Below are positions 1-11,172 of a stretch of 11,172 bases of DNA, piece by piece. Source of the stretch: a virus (Duplodnaviria > Heunggongvirae > Uroviricota > Caudoviricetes); IMG/VR virus record IMGVR_UViG_2778261217_000001, positions 1-11,172 of that record; one strand, written 5' to 3'. A program made the translations under genes and the position numbers. The notes under the pieces are model-generated. The model did not search any database. It had not been told where the DNA came from and worked only from the letters and a program-made list of their open reading frames with translations. Positions within the stretch are counted from its first letter, which is position 1; the number at the start of each line of letters is the position of its first letter.

Positions 1-1260
1 ATGAAGCTCAACGCCAGACAGGTCGAGACCGCAAAGCCAAAAGATAAAACCTACAAAATGGCCGATGGCGGCGGTTTATATCTTGAGGTTTCTGCAAAGG
101 GTTCTAAATACTGGCGCATGAAATACAGACGCCCCTCTGACAAAAAAGAGGATCGCCTCGCTTTTGGTGTTTGGCCTACCGTGACGCTTGCTCAGGCAAG
201 GGCAAAGCGTGATGAAGCTAAAAAGCTGTTAGTGCAGGGCATCGACCCAAAAGCCGAACAGAAAGAAGCTCAGGCCGTGAACTCGGGGGCATACACTTTC
301 GAAACTATCGCTCGTGAATGGCACGCCAGTAACAAGCGCTGGAGTGAAGACCATCGATCACGCGTTCTACGCTATCTTGAGCTTTATATTTTCCCCCATA
401 TCGGTTCGTCCGACATTCGGCAGCTTAAAACCAGCCACCTGTTAGCCCCGATTAAAAAAGTTGATGCCAGCGGCAAACACGATGTCGCTCAGCGCCTGCA
501 ACAGCGCGTCACGGCCATTATGCGTTATGCCGTACAGAATGATTACATCGACTCAAATCCAGCCAGCGATATGGCCGGTGCGCTATCGACAACCAAAGCG
601 CGACATTACCCGGCTTTACCTTCCAGCCGGTTCCCTGAGTTTCTTGCACATCTAGCTGCATATCGTGGCCGTGTAATGACACGGATCGCGGTCGAGCTTT
701 CCTTGCTAACTTTTGTGCGCTCCAGTGAGTTACGTTTCGCGCGTTGGGATGAATTCGACTTCGATAAATCTCTTTGGCGTATACCTGCAAAACGAGAAGA
801 AATTAAAGGCGTGCGTTATTCGTACCGAGGCATGAAGATGAAAGAGGAACATATCGTTCCGCTTAGTCGGCAGGCGATGATTTTATTGAATCAGTTAAAG
901 CAGATTAGTGGTGATAAAGAGCTGCTTTTTCCGGGGGATCACGACGCAACTAAGGTTATGAGTGAAAACACCGTAAACAATGCATTGCGTGCCATGGGTT
1001 ATGATACGAAAACTGAGGTCTGTGGGCATGGTTTTAGGACGATGGCGCGTGGTGCTTTGGGTGAGTCAGGGTTATGGAGTGATGATGCGATTGAGCGCCA
1101 GTTAAGCCACTCAGAACGTAACAATGTTCGTGCGGCGTATATTCATACTTCTGAGCATTTGGAAGAGCGTCGGCTTATGATTCAGTGGTGGGCTGATTAT
1201 TTGCAAGAGTGTTATAAAGGGCCAATAACGCCATACGAATTTGCAAAGAAATCTCAGTAG
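1..1260 (+). CDS. int: P4-type tyrosine integrase (site-specific recombinase)
   Basis: 419-aa ORF. N-terminus AKPKDKTYKMADGGGLYLEVSAKGSKYWRMKYR is typical of P4/CP4-57-type integrases; C-terminal catalytic motifs HGFRTMARG (H-x-x-R) and a tyrosine in AAYIHTSEH. ORF starts at window base 1, so no upstream tRNA/att context is visible. Confidence 0.9.
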   Translation: MKLNARQVETAKPKDKTYKMADGGGLYLEVSAKGSKYWRMKYRRPSDKKEDRLAFGVWPTVTLAQARAKRDEAKKLLVQGIDPKAEQKEAQAVNSGAYTFETIAREWHASNKRWSEDHRSRVLRYLELYIFPHIGSSDIRQLKTSHLLAPIKKVDASGKHDVAQRLQQRVTAIMRYAVQNDYIDSNPASDMAGALSTTKARHYPALPSSRFPEFLAHLAAYRGRVMTRIAVELSLLTFVRSSELRFARWDEFDFDKSLWRIPAKREEIKGVRYSYRGMKMKEEHIVPLSRQAMILLNQLKQISGDKELLFPGDHDATKVMSENTVNNALRAMGYDTKTEVCGHGFRTMARGALGESGLWSDDAIERQLSHSERNNVRAAYIHTSEHLEERRLMIQWWADYLQECYKGPITPYEFAKKSQ

Positions 1261-1577: not shown

Positions 1578-1652
1578 TAAGGCCATTGTATGGGTATTTT
1601 TAATAGGCTGAAAAATGTTTTTGTAAATGGTGATTATGTTGGAAGGGATAAA
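1509..1652 (+). repeat. In-frame imperfect tandem duplication (copies 1509..1568 and 1593..1652, offset 84 bp) spanning the end of the mini-ORF and the start of the 180-aa gene
   Basis: Peptide GVKNKLKNVSINGDYTGRDK versus GIFNRLKNVFVNGDYVGRDK (14/20 identical); the DNA copies align over about 46 bp at roughly 75% identity. Confidence 0.55.
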
Positions 1653-2132
1653 ATTGTCTATAATACAGAACCCACTCAGCTAATGCTATTGCAAGAGGAG
1701 TATCAGGAAGAGTTTAAAAATAGGCAAATTTGCACAGAAATGATTGATGAACTGAATCATTATAATACCAAAAAAAGTAAAGTGCGTGATTTGGAAGTTA
1801 AACTTAATGCTGCTGGGTACTCTTCCTTTCTTGACGAAGCTCGCGAGTTAAAAGAGTTGGTTTCGAAATTAATTATACAATATCAGCATTATCGCTCAGC
1901 ACAGAAAATAATCGCTTTTTTATTGTCAGACGTTCATTCAATTTTTCAATACAGAATAAAACCTCATATAGTAAATAAACAACAAGAGGCACAGATCCTT
2001 GAATTAATATATTTATATATAGAGTGTGAACTGAGTAGAAAGTTAGGTATAAATGCCTTGGAGATATATAATAGACAATTGCGTGGTATGGTTTTCTTCC
2101 TTACAGGAAACTGTCATTTGGAGTGGGAATAA
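1590..2132 (+). CDS. Hypothetical protein, 180 aa (cargo operon gene A; no recognisable motif)
   Basis: ORF in AT-rich island, same strand as and immediately after the mini-ORF; stop TAA overlaps the next start as TAATG (2130..2134). Confidence 0.6.
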   Translation: MGIFNRLKNVFVNGDYVGRDKIVYNTEPTQLMLLQEEYQEEFKNRQICTEMIDELNHYNTKKSKVRDLEVKLNAAGYSSFLDEARELKELVSKLIIQYQHYRSAQKIIAFLLSDVHSIFQYRIKPHIVNKQQEAQILELIYLYIECELSRKLGINALEIYNRQLRGMVFFLTGNCHLEWE

Positions 2133-2629
2133 TGTTATTATATAACAAGGCATTTGATATCAATCATACTATTCTAAGAATGTCTTCATGGCTGCTAAAT
2201 AGCTCTGAGCCGTTAATAAGTCTTGAGGGTATAAGAATATTTGACTTCTTAATAGCATTTCCTGAGTACATATCCAAGTTATCACTAGGGAAAGAATTAG
2301 TGAAGGAAAGAAATAAGTTCAAAAGGTTTTCTAACCCTTATAATGCTTTTGATCCTCAATCCTTGTTTCAGCAAATGGAAGGGGTGCAAAAATCTGCAAT
2401 TTGTTCTTTAGTAACAGCATCAGTTTTAGTAGAAATTAATAATGAATTATATGAAATAAAAAAAGATAAGTTATATGCGATTGGATTTACCAAAACCAAT
2501 CTTTTTGATAGCATAAACGAAGATGTGATCTCATTTATCAGTAACAATCTTGAGACATTACCTGTAACGGGAATAACTGGACTTAAGGCCGCTAGCAAAT
2601 TAATGAGTTTTAAATATGATCGTATATAA
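2132..2629 (+). CDS. Hypothetical protein, 165 aa (cargo operon gene B; ORF track starts it at GTG 2123)
   Basis: ATG at 2132 overlaps the upstream stop (TAATG); purine-rich ggagtggg at 2120..2127; 3' end overlaps the ATPase gene start by 14 nt. Confidence 0.6.
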   Translation: MLLYNKAFDINHTILRMSSWLLNSSEPLISLEGIRIFDFLIAFPEYISKLSLGKELVKERNKFKRFSNPYNAFDPQSLFQQMEGVQKSAICSLVTASVLVEINNELYEIKKDKLYAIGFTKTNLFDSINEDVISFISNNLETLPVTGITGLKAASKLMSFKYDRI

Positions 2630-4529
2630 TCCCACATTGAATATTAAAAAACTTTACGCATTCAAGGATGGTAAAGAGGTCATACACTTGAAGTTTCATA
2701 ATGGGCTGAATGTCATATATGGCTCGAACGGAAGCGGAAAAACCTCGGCAATTCAGTTACTCGCGTATGTTCTTGGTTCTACGATCTATAATTGGAAAGA
2801 AGAAGCAGGGAGTTGTGATTACGTTATAGCTGAAATTTACGCAAATGAGTCTACTATAACCATTCGTCGTGAGATAAGTGACACAATGGCAGGTATGAGC
2901 ATTTTTTTTGGTACATATGAAGAAAGTATCAAAGCAGGGAAAACTGGATGGTTTAGCTACCCCTACGCAATTTCTACTAACAAGGAAAGTTTTTCACAAC
3001 GTATCTTTGAAATCTTAAACATACCTGAGGCTAAATCTGACGGGATTAATAATCTTACTTTACATCAAATCCTAAGGCTGGTGTATAACAACCAATCTGA
3101 TTCTGCAACAAGTATATTTAACGACGAGAAGTTTGATTCCGCAATAAAACGAGAGTTTGTAAGTAATTATTTGCTCGGTTTGTATGATGATGATCTTTAT
3201 AATAATAAATTAGAGTATATTAAAAAAGAAAAAGAGCTAACAAAAACAATAGCTGAGTTAAAGGGTTTACTATTATTAATAGATGGTCAAGATCTTGATT
3301 TTAAATCTGATAATTTAGATAGCTTATCTGAACAATTACAGGGAAAGATCGATTCTATAATTGAAGAAATTGAAAAGTATAAAGAGTTAGATACACGGAT
3401 AAAATTTAGTAATGAAGTTAAGGCAATTAGTGCAGAACAATTAGTGAAGGATAAGAACAAGCTTATTGCCTTGGAGGTTGAATTAAGTCAAATACAATAT
3501 AATATTGTTGATTCAACCAAATTTATTGAAGAATTACAAAATAAATTACTTGCTATTAATGATTCAATTAAATTTAATAGTTCATTCAAGTTTAAAGAGT
3601 TCGATACCTGCCCATCATGTTTTACTAAGTTGCCAACTGCTCATGATGATAGTAAATGCTCTCTATGTGGTACAGAAGACCCGGATTCGGCAAAGCAAAT
3701 TAATTATGCTAGAATGAAAAATGAAATAATGATTCAAATCAACGAGTCACAAAATCTTTTGGAAAGGAATAAAATAAAGAGTGGTGAGATCTCAAAGCAA
3801 ATAAAATGCTTAAAAAGTGGAATGCGGAAAGAAGTTAACAAAGTTTCGGTTGTTAGTTCATCTTTGAATTCCCATGATGATAGCTTACTTTATAGTAAAT
3901 ATAAAGAGATTGGAGAGCTTGAAGAAAGACTAGATACTTTAGGTCGTATGGAGTCCGTTTATTCAAAAATTAAAACACTTCAGACTCTCCGCGATAGCTT
4001 ACAAGCCAGAGTTACATTTTTACAAGAAAACATTAGTAAAAAAGAACATGATCTTCAGTTAAAAATGCCAGCACTGAAAGAGAAAGTCAGTGAATATATG
4101 GAAGAAGTTTTAACTAAAGATGTCGAAAATATTGATGATCCTCATGATAAAGCTGAATTTAGTAACATAACTAGCATCGACTTTGATCTGGCTTCAAATA
4201 GGATTGTTGTCAATAATAAAGTCTCATTCTCTGAGAGCTCAATGTACTATCTTAATAATGCCCTGCATATAGCATTGCTAAAATTAAGTTTGGTTGATCC
4301 TAATGTAAGATTTCCACGTCTTTTAATTCTGGACGGTATAGAAAATGGTGGCATGGAAGATGCTCGCTCACAGGGTATCCAAAAAACTTTAAAAGAAATT
4401 TCTGATGAGTTTTGCGGGGTTCGGCATCAGATTATTATTACAACTAAAGGAATATACCATGCCGTTGATAATGATAAATATCGAGTTGGAGAAAAATTTA
4501 CTTCATCAAATCGTAGTTTAAATATGTGA
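2616..4529 (+). CDS. SMC/Rad50-like ABC ATPase, 637 aa (Walker A head, long coiled-coil, C-terminal Walker B-like segment)
   Basis: N-terminal LNVIYGSNGSGKTSAIQLLAYVLG (Walker A GSNGSGKT, SMC_N-like); long K/E/L/I-rich heptad-like middle containing CPSC-N13-CSLC (about 3609..3666); C-terminal FSESSMYYLNNALHIALL followed by RLLILDGIENGGMED (hydrophobic run ending in D, Walker B/D-loop-like). Confidence 0.8.
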   Translation: MIVYNPTLNIKKLYAFKDGKEVIHLKFHNGLNVIYGSNGSGKTSAIQLLAYVLGSTIYNWKEEAGSCDYVIAEIYANESTITIRREISDTMAGMSIFFGTYEESIKAGKTGWFSYPYAISTNKESFSQRIFEILNIPEAKSDGINNLTLHQILRLVYNNQSDSATSIFNDEKFDSAIKREFVSNYLLGLYDDDLYNNKLEYIKKEKELTKTIAELKGLLLLIDGQDLDFKSDNLDSLSEQLQGKIDSIIEEIEKYKELDTRIKFSNEVKAISAEQLVKDKNKLIALEVELSQIQYNIVDSTKFIEELQNKLLAINDSIKFNSSFKFKEFDTCPSCFTKLPTAHDDSKCSLCGTEDPDSAKQINYARMKNEIMIQINESQNLLERNKIKSGEISKQIKCLKSGMRKEVNKVSVVSSSLNSHDDSLLYSKYKEIGELEERLDTLGRMESVYSKIKTLQTLRDSLQARVTFLQENISKKEHDLQLKMPALKEKVSEYMEEVLTKDVENIDDPHDKAEFSNITSIDFDLASNRIVVNNKVSFSESSMYYLNNALHIALLKLSLVDPNVRFPRLLILDGIENGGMEDARSQGIQKTLKEISDEFCGVRHQIIITTKGIYHAVDNDKYRVGEKFTSSNRSLNM

Positions 4530-4566: not shown

Positions 4567-4761
4567 GAATAATAATATATCGCAATTATTAATTCCGTGT
4601 AACTTTATTATTGTCTATGTTATTTATAGATGTTGGCGTTATATTATCGGTCGATAATGGATTTGAGCTATTTTAGGTTAGTTAAAGTTGTTTTAAAAAT
4701 TCGATAAAGAAAATAATTTGATACTCACAAATCCTTTCTTAGCATACTTAAAGTACCTCTT

Positions 4762-4795
4762 ACGCGCGCAGCCCCGCCCGCCTGCCCGCTTCGCT
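4762..4795. other. GC-rich cos-like element (candidate packaging/cohesive-end site)
   Basis: acgcgcgcagccccgcccgcctgcccgcttcgc is an abrupt GC-rich block at the AT-rich island boundary; its reverse complement ggcgggcggggctgcgc resembles the P2/P4 cos end GGCGAGGCGGGGAAAGCAC as I recall it (partial match only). Confidence 0.25.
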
Positions 4796-4865
4796 TAACA
4801 GACTGGTTTTCATGCACCCCGTAAACCGTCTCAGAAGCCACCACACAAGGGCTTTCGCGTCAAAA

Positions 4866-4900
4866 ATGGCGCATGAGACTCATGCGTTTTCATGCGCCAT
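4866..4900. terminator. Nested palindrome / candidate bidirectional terminator or operator between convergent operons
   Basis: atggcgcatga (4866..4876) and tcatgcgccat (4890..4900) are perfect reverse complements; inner gcatgag-a-ctcatgc palindrome; A-run on the left and tttt inside. Confidence 0.35.
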
Positions 4901-4944
4901 AGATATGCACTCATACGCTCTCAGGCCAGCCAGGGAAAAGGCGT

Positions 4945-4969
4945 AAAAAATCCCGGTACTGGACCGGGA
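4945..4969 (-). terminator. Candidate intrinsic terminator of the sid-psu-delta operon
   Basis: Stem tcccggt/accggga (4951..4957, 4963..4969) with loop actgg; on the minus strand it is followed by TTTTTT (plus-strand aaaaaa 4945..4950); lies 23 nt past the delta stop. Confidence 0.45.
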
Positions 4970-4991
4970 CTTCGTGGTCGTATTTTGCTAA

Positions 4992-5264
4992 TCAGACAGG
5001 AATTTGCTGACGGTTTGACAGCTTTGACGCGGAGCCATAGCGATTGAGTGTTTGCTGTTGTTTTTCCGGTATTTTTGCTTTGTCTGATTCCTGTTCATTG
5101 CACTGAGGCTTCATAATGATCGTATCCACGCTTTCCAGTGCGGTAAATGTGCAGGAACATTCCAGATTCTGGCACTGATACCATGAGCGTTTAACCGACG
5201 GAGCTTCATAGGCGCTGGTTCTGGCGTGAGCGACCGCGCCACATTCAGGACACTTCAGGGCCAT
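4992..5264 (-). CDS. delta: Ogr/Delta-family zinc-finger late transcription activator, 90 aa (start moved to internal ATG)
   Basis: MALKCPECGAVAHARTSAYEAPSVKRSWYQCQNLECSCTFTALESVD carries the Ogr/Delta C-x2-C ... C-x4-C pattern. ATG at 5264..5262 is preceded by AAGGAG and sits 1 nt after the psu stop; the ORF-track start at 5366 would overlap psu by about 100 nt. Confidence 0.85.
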   Translation of the reverse strand: MALKCPECGAVAHARTSAYEAPSVKRSWYQCQNLECSCTFTALESVDTIIMKPQCNEQESDKAKIPEKQQQTLNRYGSASKLSNRQQIPV

Positions 5265-5265
5265 A

Positions 5266-5820
5266 TCAGCACACTCCTTTTTCATTAAGTCGGTTAAGGC
5301 GGGCCAGGAAAACTTTATGTTGTGCCGGGGTGAAACTGGCTGAAGCATCAGCGCGCATTGATGCATCCACCGTTAATCCGGTTTCGTCGATAATGCTCTT
5401 ATATGCTGCTGAAATTACCGGAGTACGGACTTCCGTTTGTCGGGCTACAGCGGTTCGTAATATTTTCATTGCCGCCTCAAGCCCGTATGGTGCACAAAGA
5501 AAAGGAGCCAGAGCGTCAGTGAGTGCATCACCATGCTCGCTCATGAAGTTTTCAGTTGCGCTTGTAACACAGCTTTCCAGCACAATCTGGTGAGCATAAA
5601 GACCATCCCGGGCGGCACAGTTAATCTGCCATTCGAGGAGTGCAAGACGCTCACGAAGATCCTCAAGTTGGCTGGCATATGCTGCGGGTTTTTCTTCAGT
5701 ATCCAGCAAAGCAGCCAGACGAAGCTGGCTGGTACTTTGCACATTACGTAGTGTCAGCCAGCTTTTTATTGCCGCGCGGTAATCGTTGAGAGCTTCCTGA
5801 GTAATGGTTCCGGTATTCAT
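5266..5820 (-). CDS. psu: Psu-like polarity suppression protein, 184 aa
   Basis: Size and motifs (EHGDALTDALAPFL, FTPAQHKVF) match my recollection of P4 Psu (about 190 aa); start ATG overlaps the sid stop (ATGA, 5817..5820). Confidence 0.75.
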   Translation of the reverse strand: MNTGTITQEALNDYRAAIKSWLTLRNVQSTSQLRLAALLDTEEKPAAYASQLEDLRERLALLEWQINCAARDGLYAHQIVLESCVTSATENFMSEHGDALTDALAPFLCAPYGLEAAMKILRTAVARQTEVRTPVISAAYKSIIDETGLTVDASMRADASASFTPAQHKVFLARLNRLNEKGVC

Positions 5821-6569
5821 TCCTTCTCGCCCCCTTTAGCCATGTCACGCTGTTTAAGCATCCGGGAACGTGCTGCAGGGCTGGGTGATTGTCTGGCATC
5901 CTGTATGGCTTTATCGTCCGCATAAATGCTGATCCCCGGCAGGGCAATATCATCCGTTGAAGATACGTTACAGAACAGTGCCGGAGTGGTGAGTTGCTCG
6001 CTGATAAATTGCTTCAGCACACTTTCGGGGTCGTTTACGGTATGAACTACACCGATAACAGAAGATGCGCTTCGGCCCAGAGTCATTTTCAGCAGTCCAA
6101 GGATCTGAATAAGTTTCTGGCCGTGTTCCTTCATAAACTCATTCCAGAGCCACACTGCATGAGTTTCAATCAGGTGATTATGTTCGCTGATGTAGCGGTT
6201 TGCAGCATCCGCAGTTTTCCATGGCAGGAATTCATTTTCTGCAGCCTGAGCAGCCAGCAAATCTTCGAACTCATCCAGTGTTTCGCGTCCGAGGGCGATT
6301 TCTGCCCGCAGTTTTTTCATTCGTGGCGTCATATTCCCCTGATTCTCACGAAACAGGTTTCGCCATTCATCATTAAGCGCCTGCGTCTCCGTTTTTGTAT
6401 CTTCCTGACGTTTACGGATAGTTTCAGTCATTGCAGCGGCTTCGGTTTGTTTTCGCCGTTCTTCCTGCCAGACAGCTTTTGCTGCCTTAACTTTTTCCAC
6501 CGCTTCGCGAATTTTCGGCGGGAGGGTGGGGGTAATGTTTGCATCAGAGATCTGGTTAACAGTTGTCAT
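5817..6569 (-). CDS. sid: Sid-like capsid size determination protein, 250 aa from ATG 6569 (ORF track starts it at TTG 6602)
   Basis: E/K/A/Q-rich helical protein at the head of the operon, coupled to psu; ATG at 6569 has GGAG with a 5-nt spacer, whereas 6602 is TTG without a Shine-Dalgarno. Assignment is by position and size; I do not recall a sequence motif for it. Confidence 0.5.
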   Translation of the reverse strand: MTTVNQISDANITPTLPPKIREAVEKVKAAKAVWQEERRKQTEAAAMTETIRKRQEDTKTETQALNDEWRNLFRENQGNMTPRMKKLRAEIALGRETLDEFEDLLAAQAAENEFLPWKTADAANRYISEHNHLIETHAVWLWNEFMKEHGQKLIQILGLLKMTLGRSASSVIGVVHTVNDPESVLKQFISEQLTTPALFCNVSSTDDIALPGISIYADDKAIQDARQSPSPAARSRMLKQRDMAKGGEKE

Positions 6570-6603
6570 GGCTGCTCCGGTAGTGTTTTGTTGTTGTGTC
6601 AAT

Positions 6604-6659
6604 TGTGCCGGGGTCCATACAAGCGCACTACCGAGGAGGATTGTGTCAGTGACTGAACA
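6604..6659 (-). promoter_or_regulatory. Two TGT-N12-ACA elements upstream of sid (candidate Delta/Ogr-responsive late promoter)
   Basis: tgtgccggggtccataca (6604..6621) and tgtgtcagtgactgaaca (6642..6659); TGT-N12-ACA is the consensus for Ogr/Delta-activated P2/P4 late promoters; the distal site centre is about 81 nt upstream of the sid ATG. Confidence 0.4.
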
Positions 6660-6726
6660 ATGACCTTGTTCTGGCTAGCCAGAGAAAGGTGTCATGTCTG
6701 ATCTATACGCTTCCTTTAATACATAC

Positions 6727-6930
6727 TATTCACTACTGTTCACTTCAATAAAAATATAGTAAATACATGTGGTTAAGTGGTGTAGTGTTTTAATTAAAGT
6801 GATCATCTACTGTTCATGACTGTTCACAGAGATAAAATTAAACATATATTTTTTTTTCATATAAGTCGCGATATTTATTTCAGTTTATTACTGGATCTTT
6901 TCTCCTCACCAATATTCACCAGTATTCAAT
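6727..6930. repeat. Iteron-like direct repeats in the AT-rich divergent region (candidate ori)
   Basis: Exact 8-mer actgttca three times in one orientation (6735..6742, 6809..6816, 6819..6826), plus tattcacc (6913..6920) and tattcaat (6923..6930); these resemble the P4 alpha-binding iteron TGTTCACC as I recall it. Confidence 0.35.
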
Positions 6931-7474
6931 ACATATTCTATGTAAAGAATAAAAGATGTCTTATGTCTGTTTAATAATTAAACATTCAACCTCCCTGCAC
7001 TCAGTTGCATTTCAGGAAAATATTCATAAAAATGAATTTGTCTGATGTTCATTAAACACATCCGGATACATGCGGAAGTAAGATGGTAATTTAATTTCTT
7101 TAATCATCGGATTTATTGATACATATGGTGAGCTGTTTATTTTTGGCCGTTTTTGGCTCTTTTATTAATCAGGTGTTGTCTTAGTGCTTATGATGTAACG
7201 CCCTGAATGATATGGGCTGGTTCAGATTTGAGCTGTGATCCTGCCTAGTGTAATAGACTTTTTTATTATTGATGCTCCTTATTATATTCCATAAAGGAAT
7301 TGTTTGTTTTTGTTCGTTTCATACGGTTTTTAGCTGTTTTATTTTTTGAGAAATCAACATTTCACACAAAATAAATAAAGCATGCGCGAGCCGCTTATAT
7401 AAACATAATAAGGAGCTACCTGAATCCGCATGGAATTGCCCGGACTGTTGTAAACATATTAGAGAGGTAGCCAG

Positions 7475-7735
7475 ATGAATAGTATTTCCGTTTCCACCCC
7501 GGCACCAGCTGCTCCGGTGCTCCCGGTTCCGGCTCAGCAGGAGCGCTTCATACGATTACCTGAAGTGATGCACCTTTGCGGGCTATCCCGTTCAACCATC
7601 TACGACCTTATCAGCCGCGATGCCTTCCCGCAGCAGATATCCCTGGGTGGAAAAAATGTGGCCTGGGTACAGTCGGAGGTCAGTGCATGGATGGCGGCGC
7701 GAATTGCTGCCCGCGAGCAAGGAGGCCATGCGTGA
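7475..7735 (+). CDS. alpA: AlpA-family (Vis-like) phage transcriptional regulator / excisionase-like DNA-binding protein, 86 aa
   Basis: [50 protein letters not shown] is the characteristic AlpA/MerR-like HTH core; SD gagg with 7-nt spacer before ATG 7475. Confidence 0.85.
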
Positions 7736-7800: not shown

Positions 7801-7830
7801 TTTCCCGCTGCCGCAAAATCGGCTGCCGGG

Positions 7831-7855
7831 CGTAGGAACCCGAGTTACTTATTGG
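7831..7855 (+). promoter_or_regulatory. seqA-like antisense target site (a/b boxes)
   Basis: gtaggaa (7832..7838) and cttattgg (7848..7855) are exact complements of ttcctac and ccaataag in the downstream antisense element. Confidence 0.4.
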
Positions 7856-7862
7856 CGACACC

Positions 7863-7885
7863 AGACGCGCCGTGCGTCTTTTTTT
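7863..7885 (+). terminator. Intrinsic terminator directly after the seqA-like site
   Basis: Stem agacgc/gcgtct (7863..7868, 7874..7879), loop gccgt, then seven T (7879..7885). Confidence 0.5.
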
Positions 7886-7949
7886 ACGTCGTTGCTCAGG
7901 CACACCCATTTTTCGGGCTGCGGTGCTTATACCTTAGCCCCTTTCAGAT

Positions 7950-8030
7950 AATGGTGGTCCGGGCGGGGCAGCCTTCGGGCTGGCCGGTTTCCAATAAGGC
8001 CGGTATTCCTACCCCCGTTCGGGTCACCAC
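7950..8030 (+). ncRNA. c4/CI-like antisense immunity RNA candidate (boundaries approximate)
   Basis: Structured GC-rich segment with a UUCG-loop hairpin (gggcagcc-ttcg-ggctggcc, 7966..7985) followed by ccaataag (7991..7998) and ttcctac (8006..8012), which pair with two bipartite target sites on the same strand; no plausible ORF. Confidence 0.4.
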
Positions 8031-8037
8031 CCATGAG

Positions 8038-8838: not shown

Positions 8839-11172
8839 ATGTCAGGAATGAAAGTCAGTCAGGCCGTGAAGGCTGCCCGCGGTCACTGGGCTCAGATTCT
8901 GCCAGCGCTGGGCGTGAATATATTGAAAAATCGCCATCAGCCTTGCCCGGTCTGTGGCGGTAAAGATCGTTTTCGCTTCGACGATCAGGAAGGACGCGGA
9001 ACATGGTTCTGCAATCAGTGCGGAGCCGGGGATGGTTTAGCGCTTGTCACCAGGGCACTGAATGTGGATATCAGTGAAGCAGCTGACAGGATACATGGAC
9101 TGACACATGATCTGTCTATAGTTAATTCCGAGGTCAGGACGTTAACCGCCGATACCGATAGCGGGAAAGATGCAGCGGCAGCACTTGCCGCGCGACTGCT
9201 GCAAGCCTCGCGTGAATCTGCCGGAAACACTTATCTTACACATAAAGGTTTCCCGGAGCATATTTGCCATGAGCTGACTTCAGCTCATAAGGCCGGTGGT
9301 GTGATGTTCCGCCCCGGTGATTTGATCGTCCCACTCTATAACGCTGACGGGGAGCTGGTGAATATTCAGCTTATCAGTGGCAATGGTAGCAAGTGTTTTC
9401 TTAAAGGAGGTCAGGTTAAGGAGGCCTATCATCTGATAGAAGGGGGCGGGAGTTCTGTAAGAAGGATTTGGATTGCGGAAGGTTACGCCACGGCGCTTAC
9501 CATTCATTATTTGACAGGAGAAGCCGTCATGGTGGCATTTTCGTCGGTCAACTTTCTTTCTCTGAGCAGCGTTGCCCATAATAAGTATCCTGGATATCAG
9601 TTAATTATTGCAGCGGACCGCGATCTGAATGGTTCAGGCCAGAACAGGGCTGAAACTGCTGCAAAAGCGAGTCAGTGTGACATTGTGCTGCCACCGGTTT
9701 TTGGTGACTGGAATGATGCGCTTACCCAATACGGAGAGGAATCCACCAGGACGGCAATTCTTGAGGCTTTGAAGCCACATAACGCCAGTCCTTTCGACAC
9801 AATGAGTGAAGCAGAATTCACAGCGATGAGTGTCAGCGAAAAAGCTCAGAGGGTTCGGGAGCATTACAGGGATGCACTGGCGGTTGATTCGAACGGGCAG
9901 CTTTTATCCCGCTACGAGTCTGGAGCGTGGAAAGTTATTTCTCAGTCAGATTTTGCCCGAGATGTCGCAGCCCTTTTCCAGCGCCTCGGGGCACCGTTTT
10001 CCTCAGGAAAAATTGCCTCACTGGTGGAAACATTAAAGTTAATTGTTCCGCAGCAGCAAAATCCGTCACGTCATCTGATTGGTTTTCGTAATGGCGTTCT
10101 CGATACGCGAACAGGGCTTTTTAGTCCGCACTGTAAAGAGAACTGGCTGCGTACCCTGTGTGAAGTCGATTTCACGCCACCGGTAAAGGGGGAAACGCTT
10201 GAAACTCATGCCCCGGCATTCTGGCGTTGGCTGGACCGGGCCGCCGGACACAAGCCAGCAAAACGCGACATTATTCTTGCAGCGTTATTTATGGTGCTGG
10301 CGAACCGCTATGACTGGCAGCTCTTTCTGGAAGTGACTGGCCCTGGTGGAAGTGGCAAAAGTATTCTGGCTGAAATTGCGACCATGCTTGCTGGAGAGGA
10401 TAACGCCACCTCTGCGACCATTGAAACGCTGGAGTCCCCGCGAGAACGTGCGGCTCTGATAGGTTTTTCTCTTATTCGCCTGCCTGATCAGGAGAAGTGG
10501 AGCGGCGACGGCGCCGGGCTTAAGGCTATAACTGGTGGCGATGCAGTATCTGTGGACCCCAAATATCAGAATGCTTATTCAACACATATTCCGGCGGTTA
10601 TCTTGGCCGTAAATAATAATCCTATGCGCTTCACTGATCGCAGTGGTGGTGTGTCCCGCAGGAGAGTTATTCTGCATTTTCCTGAGCAGATAGCACCGGA
10701 AGAACGCGATCCGCAGTTGAAAGATAAAATTGCACGAGAACTGGCTGTGATTGTTCGTCAGCTCATGCAGCGTTTCAGCGATCCGATGAGCGCCAGAACA
10801 TTGCTTCAGTCGCAGCAGAATTCTGATGAGGCTCTCACCATCAAGCGTGATGCTGATCCAGCATTTGATTTTTGTGGCTACCTTGAGGCATTACCTGACA
10901 CCAACGGCATGTTTATGGGGAACGCCAATATTGTCCCGCGCCAGCCACGTACGTACCTTTACCATGCCTATCTTGTATACATGGAGGCTAATGGCTTTAA
11001 AAATACCCTTAGCCTGACAATGTTTGGCAAAGGGCTACCAGTTATGCTGAAGGAATACGGGCTAAATTATGAGAAGCGGCGAACTAATCAGGGAATGCAG
11101 ACTAACCTCACTTTAAAAGAGGAAAGTAATGCAGACTGGCTTCCCAAGTGTGATGAGCCAACAATCAAATAA
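8839..11172 (+). CDS. alpha: P4 alpha-type primase/helicase, 777 aa (start moved to ATG 8839)
   Basis: N-terminal zinc-binding motif CPVCGGKDRFRFDDQEGRGTWFCNQCG; acidic TOPRIM-like region (IIAADRD); Walker A VTGPGGSGKSILAEIA in the C-terminal half; SD gggaga at 8825..8830. The 777-aa length equals P4 alpha as I recall it. Confidence 0.9.
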   Translation: MSGMKVSQAVKAARGHWAQILPALGVNILKNRHQPCPVCGGKDRFRFDDQEGRGTWFCNQCGAGDGLALVTRALNVDISEAADRIHGLTHDLSIVNSEVRTLTADTDSGKDAAAALAARLLQASRESAGNTYLTHKGFPEHICHELTSAHKAGGVMFRPGDLIVPLYNADGELVNIQLISGNGSKCFLKGGQVKEAYHLIEGGGSSVRRIWIAEGYATALTIHYLTGEAVMVAFSSVNFLSLSSVAHNKYPGYQLIIAADRDLNGSGQNRAETAAKASQCDIVLPPVFGDWNDALTQYGEESTRTAILEALKPHNASPFDTMSEAEFTAMSVSEKAQRVREHYRDALAVDSNGQLLSRYESGAWKVISQSDFARDVAALFQRLGAPFSSGKIASLVETLKLIVPQQQNPSRHLIGFRNGVLDTRTGLFSPHCKENWLRTLCEVDFTPPVKGETLETHAPAFWRWLDRAAGHKPAKRDIILAALFMVLANRYDWQLFLEVTGPGGSGKSILAEIATMLAGEDNATSATIETLESPRERAALIGFSLIRLPDQEKWSGDGAGLKAITGGDAVSVDPKYQNAYSTHIPAVILAVNNNPMRFTDRSGGVSRRRVILHFPEQIAPEERDPQLKDKIARELAVIVRQLMQRFSDPMSARTLLQSQQNSDEALTIKRDADPAFDFCGYLEALPDTNGMFMGNANIVPRQPRTYLYHAYLVYMEANGFKNTLSLTMFGKGLPVMLKEYGLNYEKRRTNQGMQTNLTLKEESNADWLPKCDEPTIK

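Follow-up and report, generated by a model that had tools for sequence, protein, structure and literature searches.

The closest described counterparts of the locus analysed here are the late promoters of the satellite phage P4 and of its helper P2. In the work of Julien and Calendar from 1995, P4 Delta is said to leave a footprint at -55 in every late promoter of P2 and of P4, and a second footprint was reportedly found near -18 in the P4 promoter Psid. The two exact TGT-N12-ACA dyads of Psid lie at 9493..9510 and 9531..9548 of the P4 genome (NC_001609), followed by the hexamer CACAAT (9545..9550) and the ATG of sid at 9583. For late promoters that depend on Ogr, TGT-N12-ACA has been published as the consensus (PMC3931495). 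[quoted passage not shown] Thus, an earlier note on this DNA, made from the sequence alone, named the recognition pattern of the Ogr/Delta activators in agreement with the literature. In the P2 record (NC_001895; 3057..3087, 10239..10266 and 17555..17583), none of the four late promoters carries an exact TGT-N12-ACA. The activator sites read TGT-N12-CCA (PO/PP and PF) or TGT-N11-ACA (PV), therefore the motif is a consensus and not a strict requirement. PO and PP share one dyad, which is centred at -55.5 from each of the two annotated starts, and the dyads of PV and PF are found at about -56 to -57.5 from theirs. Each P2 late promoter possesses a single imperfect dyad and nothing comparable near -18, whereas the satellite sid promoters that were examined have two perfect dyads.

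The DNA studied here, called the window, comprises 11,172 nucleotides of an IMG/VR virus record. Its 56-bp interval 6604..6659 is, judged from sequence comparison, very probably an activator-dependent late promoter that reads leftward into the sid-psu-delta operon of a P4-like satellite. It would be the counterpart of the Psid architecture in an uncharacterised P4-like prophage, and since this architecture was already described in P4, the finding is correct but ordinary. As in Psid, the first bases of the two dyads are at positions -90 and -52 relative to the ATG of sid, a spacing of 38 bp, with 34 nt from the end of the proximal dyad to this ATG, and CACAAT overlaps the proximal ACA; the distance between the distal dyad and the -10-like hexamer is also the same in both. 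The trait that marks Psid, a second dyad about 38 bp further on (at about -18) that overlaps the -10 and lies directly upstream of sid, is present in the window. Both promoters drive sid, psu and an Ogr/Delta activator, and both diverge from an alpA/vis-primase operon. Unlike this geometry, the sequence is not shared: the dyad interiors and flanks are unrelated to those of P4, and the Sid proteins are 21% identical. The gene order is sid-psu-delta in the window and sid-delta-psu in P4, and Delta has one zinc finger (90 aa) instead of two (166 aa). With the late promoters PP, PO, PV and PF of P2 the window shares the lack of a usable -35 and the activator family. A modest addition to the P4 picture is that the -18 operator and a two-base -35 remnant are invariant family-wide, in contrast to the single imperfect sites of the helper P2.

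The prophage and its late operon

By gene content and genomic context, the window represents a prophage of Escherichia coli that belongs to the P4-like satellites. The first gene (1..1260) has 92.7% DNA identity to the P4 integrase gene. In a megablast of the whole window against phage records P4 was matched over the integrase only, therefore the comparison with P4 was made via geometry and not via DNA alignment. Region 6400..7000 is 100% identical to a chromosomal locus adjoining tRNA-Leu in strain NIPH17_0036 and was found in 241 of 5426 complete E. coli genomes; the near-identical RefSeq twin of the element adjoins tRNA-Leu and has an alpA-icd-primase operon. The plus strand of the window encodes, from 7475 onwards, alpA, an icd-like gene, a DUF5375 gene and the alpha primase-helicase. 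The core genes of P4-like satellites are integrase, psu, delta, sid, alpA and primase alpha (de Sousa et al., PMC8628076), and all of them are present. Downstream of alpA, Rfam identified, both on the plus strand and above the gathering score, the Hfq-binding RNA isrK (7807..7884, 72 bits) and a C4 antisense RNA (7947..8034, 83 bits), the family to which the CI immunity RNA of P4 belongs. Both RNAs lie within the P4-type immunity region. The interval between integrase and late operon (1590..4529, plus strand) carries cargo, for which the annotation of the RefSeq twin gives an ABC-three-component system of two small proteins and a 637-aa AAA ATPase; presumably, this is the variable, often defence-carrying region of P4-like satellites. 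The 19-nt cohesive end of P4, GGCGAGGCGGGGAAAGCAC, was not found in the window with up to five mismatches allowed, and a G+C-rich stretch near 4765..4800 (region 4700..4990) might be the cos region of the element.

All three genes of the late operon are encoded on the minus strand. The product of sid (5817..6569), the capsid size-determining external scaffold, has 250 aa and belongs to the Pfam Psu family (E 4e-8), and psu (5266..5820) encodes the polarity suppression and capsid decoration protein of 184 aa (Pfam Psu, E 2.7e-35; RefSeq agrees). The last gene, delta (4992..5264), encodes a single-domain Ogr/Delta zinc-finger activator of 90 aa (Pfam Ogr_Delta PF04606, E 6.3e-17). Its single finger has the form CX2CX22CX4C, the spacing cited for Ogr/Delta zinc fingers (PMC3931495), and the identity of the protein is 49% with P2 Ogr (over 51 aa) and 43% with the first of the two fingers of P4 Delta. 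Thus, the proposal in the earlier note that the operon itself encodes a Delta homologue is borne out. An intrinsic terminator closes the operon at 4941..4973 (minus strand), in which a hairpin with a folding energy of -15.5 kcal/mol (z -2.45) precedes a U run. Since an Ogr_Delta gene ends the operon, it is natural to infer from P4 that late expression would be positively autoregulated and inducible by the helper's Ogr. In NZ_AP024561.1 (locus L001), otherwise 99.7-99.9% identical, the 172 bp corresponding to 4896..5067 of the window are missing, with the junction at 5664..5669 of L001. This deletion takes the terminator together with the last 25 codons of delta, a gene that the annotation of L001 lists as a pseudogene; unlike this copy, the delta gene in the window is intact.

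Putative operator dyads, probable core promoter and start codon of sid

Both candidate Ogr/Delta operators upstream of sid are exact matches to TGT-N12-ACA on the minus strand, as the earlier note had reported. The distal dyad TGTTCAGTCACTGACACA occupies 6642..6659, and the proximal dyad TGTATGGACCCCGGCACA, separated from it by a 20-bp linker, occupies 6604..6621. On the sid strand they are followed in order by CACAAT, a TTG triplet (6602..6600), GGAG (6578..6575) and the ATG at 6569. The number of such motifs is by itself compatible with chance occurrences of a loose six-base motif: the window contains three exact copies (6604..6621, 6642..6659 and 6811..6828) where 2.4 are expected, and 87 of 200 shuffled sequences had three or more, so the count alone is not unusual. 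The arrangement argues against this explanation, as two sites no more than 60 bp apart occurred in 3.5% of 3000 Markov-simulated windows, a spacing of 38-39 bp in only 0.13% of them, and the geometry is identical to that of P4. The comparative data described below have already refuted the chance explanation, which we regard as so improbable that it can be neglected.

A scan for consensus sigma-70 promoters returned none on the sid (minus) strand. What is recognisable is a -10-like hexamer, CACAAT (6602..6607, minus strand), that is invariant among the relatives and overlaps both the ACA of the proximal dyad (6606..6604) and the first T of TTG. Positioned 17 bp from this hexamer in the window is the sequence TAGTGC (6625..6630, minus strand), a vestigial -35 of which T6630 (-35) and G6628 (-33) are invariant. 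These two bases look like the first and third positions of a degenerate -35 (TTG), a remnant of two bases, and the proximal dyad fills the spacer between -35 and -10. The locus therefore has the combination seen in late promoters, a recognisable -10 (the invariant CACAAT) and no functional -35, which is reduced to T and G; a -10-like hexamer together with a merely vestigial -35 points to a promoter that needs an activator. Transcription would start at about A6595 (plus or minus one, 6594..6596), 7 nt downstream of the -10-like hexamer on the minus strand, and this start would place the distal dyad at -64..-47 (centre -55.5) and the proximal dyad at -26..-9 (centre -17.5). This placement is geometric and uses in part the same -55 rule that the distal dyad then satisfies. 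The P2 RefSeq record, in which both the late starts and the activator sites are annotated, provides an independent calibration, and the equivalent position in P4 is 9557. With its offset as in P4 and its centre at -55.5 from the inferred start, the distal site has a spacing that fits a promoter for the ATG at 6569, as had been suggested.

Two other readings of the interval were tried and rejected. A perfect TTGACA at 6602..6597 was considered as an alternative -35; it has no -10-like sequence 16-18 bp further on, and its TTG is part of the conserved block CACAATTGAC. The open reading frames antisense to sid that run over the promoter interval, 5994..6656 and 6526..6663 (both plus strand), are without support.

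The same conserved block explains the start codon to which the open reading frame of sid had been extended. TTG 6602..6600 belongs to the DNA block CACAATTGAC, and where the window carries this block P4 reads CACAATTTTC, a difference that gives rise to a spurious TTG start in the window. In 69 distinct upstream sequences the TTG is in frame and open in 12, all from the lineage of the window; elsewhere it is out of frame (23/69), followed by an in-frame stop (17/69) or absent (17/69). It would also lie at -7..-5, upstream of the inferred transcription start, and it overlaps the last base of the -10-like hexamer. Thus, it is well supported by the homologues that translation of sid starts at ATG 6569. 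The aligned Met (MT/MN) is the first residue of all 22 aligned Sid homologues, P4 Sid included, database relatives of Sid have 241-256 aa at full coverage, and RefSeq sets the start of sid at 6569. A Shine-Dalgarno sequence, GGAG (6575..6578, minus strand), precedes this ATG by 5 nt, and a similar motif is found 5-9 nt before the aligned ATG in 69/69 relatives. The earlier note was therefore right that the internal ATG is the real start, although its premise was inaccurate: the proximal dyad does not lie within the first codons of the TTG-started frame (5817..6602), as its end at 6604 is 1 nt short of the TTG.

Conservation of the dyad pair and possible function of the proximal dyad

To the 14 loci from GTDB genomes that were gathered with a Sid alignment (genera include Scandinavium, Pantoea, Mixta, Citrobacter, Pseudocitrobacter, Enterobacter, Shigella and Erwinia), 139 more were added from IMG/VR. 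The resulting 153 loci span more than ten enterobacterial genera in addition to IMG/VR, with Sid proteins that are 21-100% identical, and together with P4 and the window they collapse to 69 distinct 140-bp upstream sequences. Both dyads are present in 69/69. From the start of one dyad to the start of the other, 63 sequences have 38 bp and the remaining 6 have 39 bp, and the proximal dyad ends 32-36 nt before the ATG. Within the dyads, however, only the motif is kept: the distal dyad occurs as 23 distinct 18-mers and the proximal dyad as 15, and all 12 TGT/ACA columns are invariant compared with 1 of the 24 inner columns, the other 23 being variable. Under equal rates, a distribution with no change in the 12 core columns and 43 or more in the 24 inner ones would have a probability of about 3e-8. 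The only other invariant positions are CACAATT (6607..6601), T6630 and G6628. Counted from the first base of the distal dyad, the last two follow at 29 and 31 bp, and in the 39-bp spacing variants they stay in register with the distal and not with the proximal dyad, so that their distance to the -10-like hexamer is 17 or 18 bp. Taken together, the alignment shows purifying selection on exactly the TGT/ACA bases, the T and G of the -35 and CACAATT. It thus serves as a natural mutagenesis map, in which the 12 dyad bases, the two -35 bases and CACAATT are the only constrained positions.

IMG/VR was also scanned blindly with the composite pattern dyad-N20-TGT-N11-CACAATT, which was found in at least 80 loci. 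Among the 80 matches listed, 61 lie about 90 nt before the start of a Sid homologue. The other 19 are clearly unrelated chance matches, mostly in AT-rich or coding sequence, and taken alone they would speak for chance. No recurrent context other than sid was found among the matches listed, thus within this set the composite is specific to the sid promoter. The dyad pair occurs with both types of activator, the one-finger Delta of about 90 aa that is present in all lineages except that of P4, and the two-finger Delta of P4 (166 aa). Therefore, the second dyad is not an adaptation to the tandem Delta of P4.

We infer the function of the two dyads from these comparisons and from the known activity of Ogr. 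The distal dyad at about -55.5 would be bound by the Ogr protein of a P2-like helper, either infecting or induced, or by the 90-aa Delta of the satellite itself, and the bound activator would recruit RNA polymerase via the C-terminal domain of the alpha subunit, as for P2 Ogr. A second activator molecule would occupy the proximal dyad at about -17.5, within the 17-bp spacer and in contact with the -10 hexamer. Our best guess is that it raises occupancy of the promoter and makes up for the missing -35 contact. Higher occupancy might in turn make the satellite promoter a better target than the single, imperfect sites of the helper, and as delta is the last gene of the operon, firing would be self-reinforcing in a positive loop. 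The element is thus predicted to be silent until a P2-like helper supplies Ogr and then to amplify its late expression via its own Delta.

The proximal dyad might have been conserved for other reasons. If only the distal dyad were an activator site, the proximal sequence could be kept as part of the core promoter (spacer and -10) or as the operator of another protein. The proximal ACA is indeed embedded in the invariant CACAATT, and part of its conservation could be due to the overlapping hexamer; moreover, a single site suffices in the P2 late promoters, which have nothing comparable at -18. Such an explanation does not account for the proximal TGT (-26..-24), which is located 15 bp from the -10 hexamer, corresponds to no sigma-70 element and is invariant in 69/69 while its neighbours vary. 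Together, the proximal TGT and ACA reproduce the distal motif and its internal spacing exactly, and in several lineages the distal and proximal 18-mers are nearly identical, for example TGTGCCAGCCACCACACA and TGTGTCAGCCACGACACA. The Delta footprint reported at -18 in P4 Psid likewise speaks for the activator. A distal-only activator site is therefore quite improbable in our view. Because the proximal TGT is invariant, has no sigma-70 match and belongs to an exact copy of the distal motif, binding of the same activator to both dyads is favoured.

Binding of the same protein to both dyads does not define its effect, as a protein at -26..-9 could be an obstacle to RNA polymerase just as well as an aid. 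The proximal dyad could be a brake, at which the activator, once present at high levels, would block access to the -10 region and limit or stop late expression. Its position would suit this function, since it fills the spacer and overlaps the -10-like hexamer, the classical location of a repressor, and the dyad centres, 38-39 bp or 3.6-3.7 helical turns apart, face different sides of the DNA. However, the proximal dyad is a perfect match, so a low-affinity site that fills late is unlikely, and the helper promoters would need the same limiting yet lack a dyad at -18. We consider a brake unlikely, though less so than an unrelated function of the proximal sequence, and retain activation from both dyads as the preferred reading.

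A stronger version of the preferred reading would make the -18 dyad an element that the mechanism requires and that is specific to satellites, instead of a special trait of P4. No change in it was seen even between the most distant lineages of the sample (Sid identity 21%), and the proximal dyad is in register with the -10 hexamer as the distal dyad is with the -35 T and G. We offer this version tentatively and hold it to be possible but rather doubtful. If the -18 dyad were obligatory, an activator bound in the spacer could exert its effect directly on the promoter DNA, in a MerR-like manner, and two perfect sites against one imperfect site in the helper could capture the helper's Ogr first. 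If true, such a capture would constitute a cis-regulatory side of molecular piracy that is undescribed across the family. Irrespective of mechanism, the poorly understood -18 operator is present in all sid promoters of P4-like satellites that were sampled (69/69), and a second dyad at about -18 is, on this sampling, a regular feature of P4-type promoters and no oddity. For the prophage itself, the annotation is now fixed with the sid start at ATG 6569, and the probable promoter, the predicted start-site region and the operon limits are defined.

The third dyad and the PLL region

The remaining exact TGT-N12-ACA of the window, TGTTCATGACTGTTCACA (6811..6828, plus strand), consists of two tandem CTGTTCA units. 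These units are the complement of the type-1 repeat of the P4 origin, GGTGAACA, and further copies are found near 6722..6750. Two lineages (Sid identity 58%) have kept the third dyad, at a distance of about 167-169 bp on the upstream side of the distal sid dyad, and a sigma-70-like sequence, TTCACA-16-TATATT (plus strand), overlaps it (6811..6828, with 6823..6850). The repeat composition suggests that the third dyad is probably part of the replication-origin iterons rather than a Delta site, although it may have a dual role as iterons and Delta site. A Delta site of the PLL type was rejected as the main reading: the units are tandem origin-type iterons, and their distance to alpA is about 655 bp, compared with about 111 bp between the P4-type PLL dyad and vis.

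PLL is the second Delta- and Cox-responsive late promoter of P4. An exact dyad of the PLL type is located 110-118 bp upstream of vis/alpA in P4 (9133..9150) and in some relatives (loci L008, L038, L041 and L052). The corresponding region of the window, 7330..7475 (plus strand), has no exact dyad of this type and only a one-mismatch candidate at 7342..7359. Thus, Delta control of the leftward operon may be lost or different in the window. The conserved block of the PLL region that lies downstream, AATAAGGAGCTACC, is kept.
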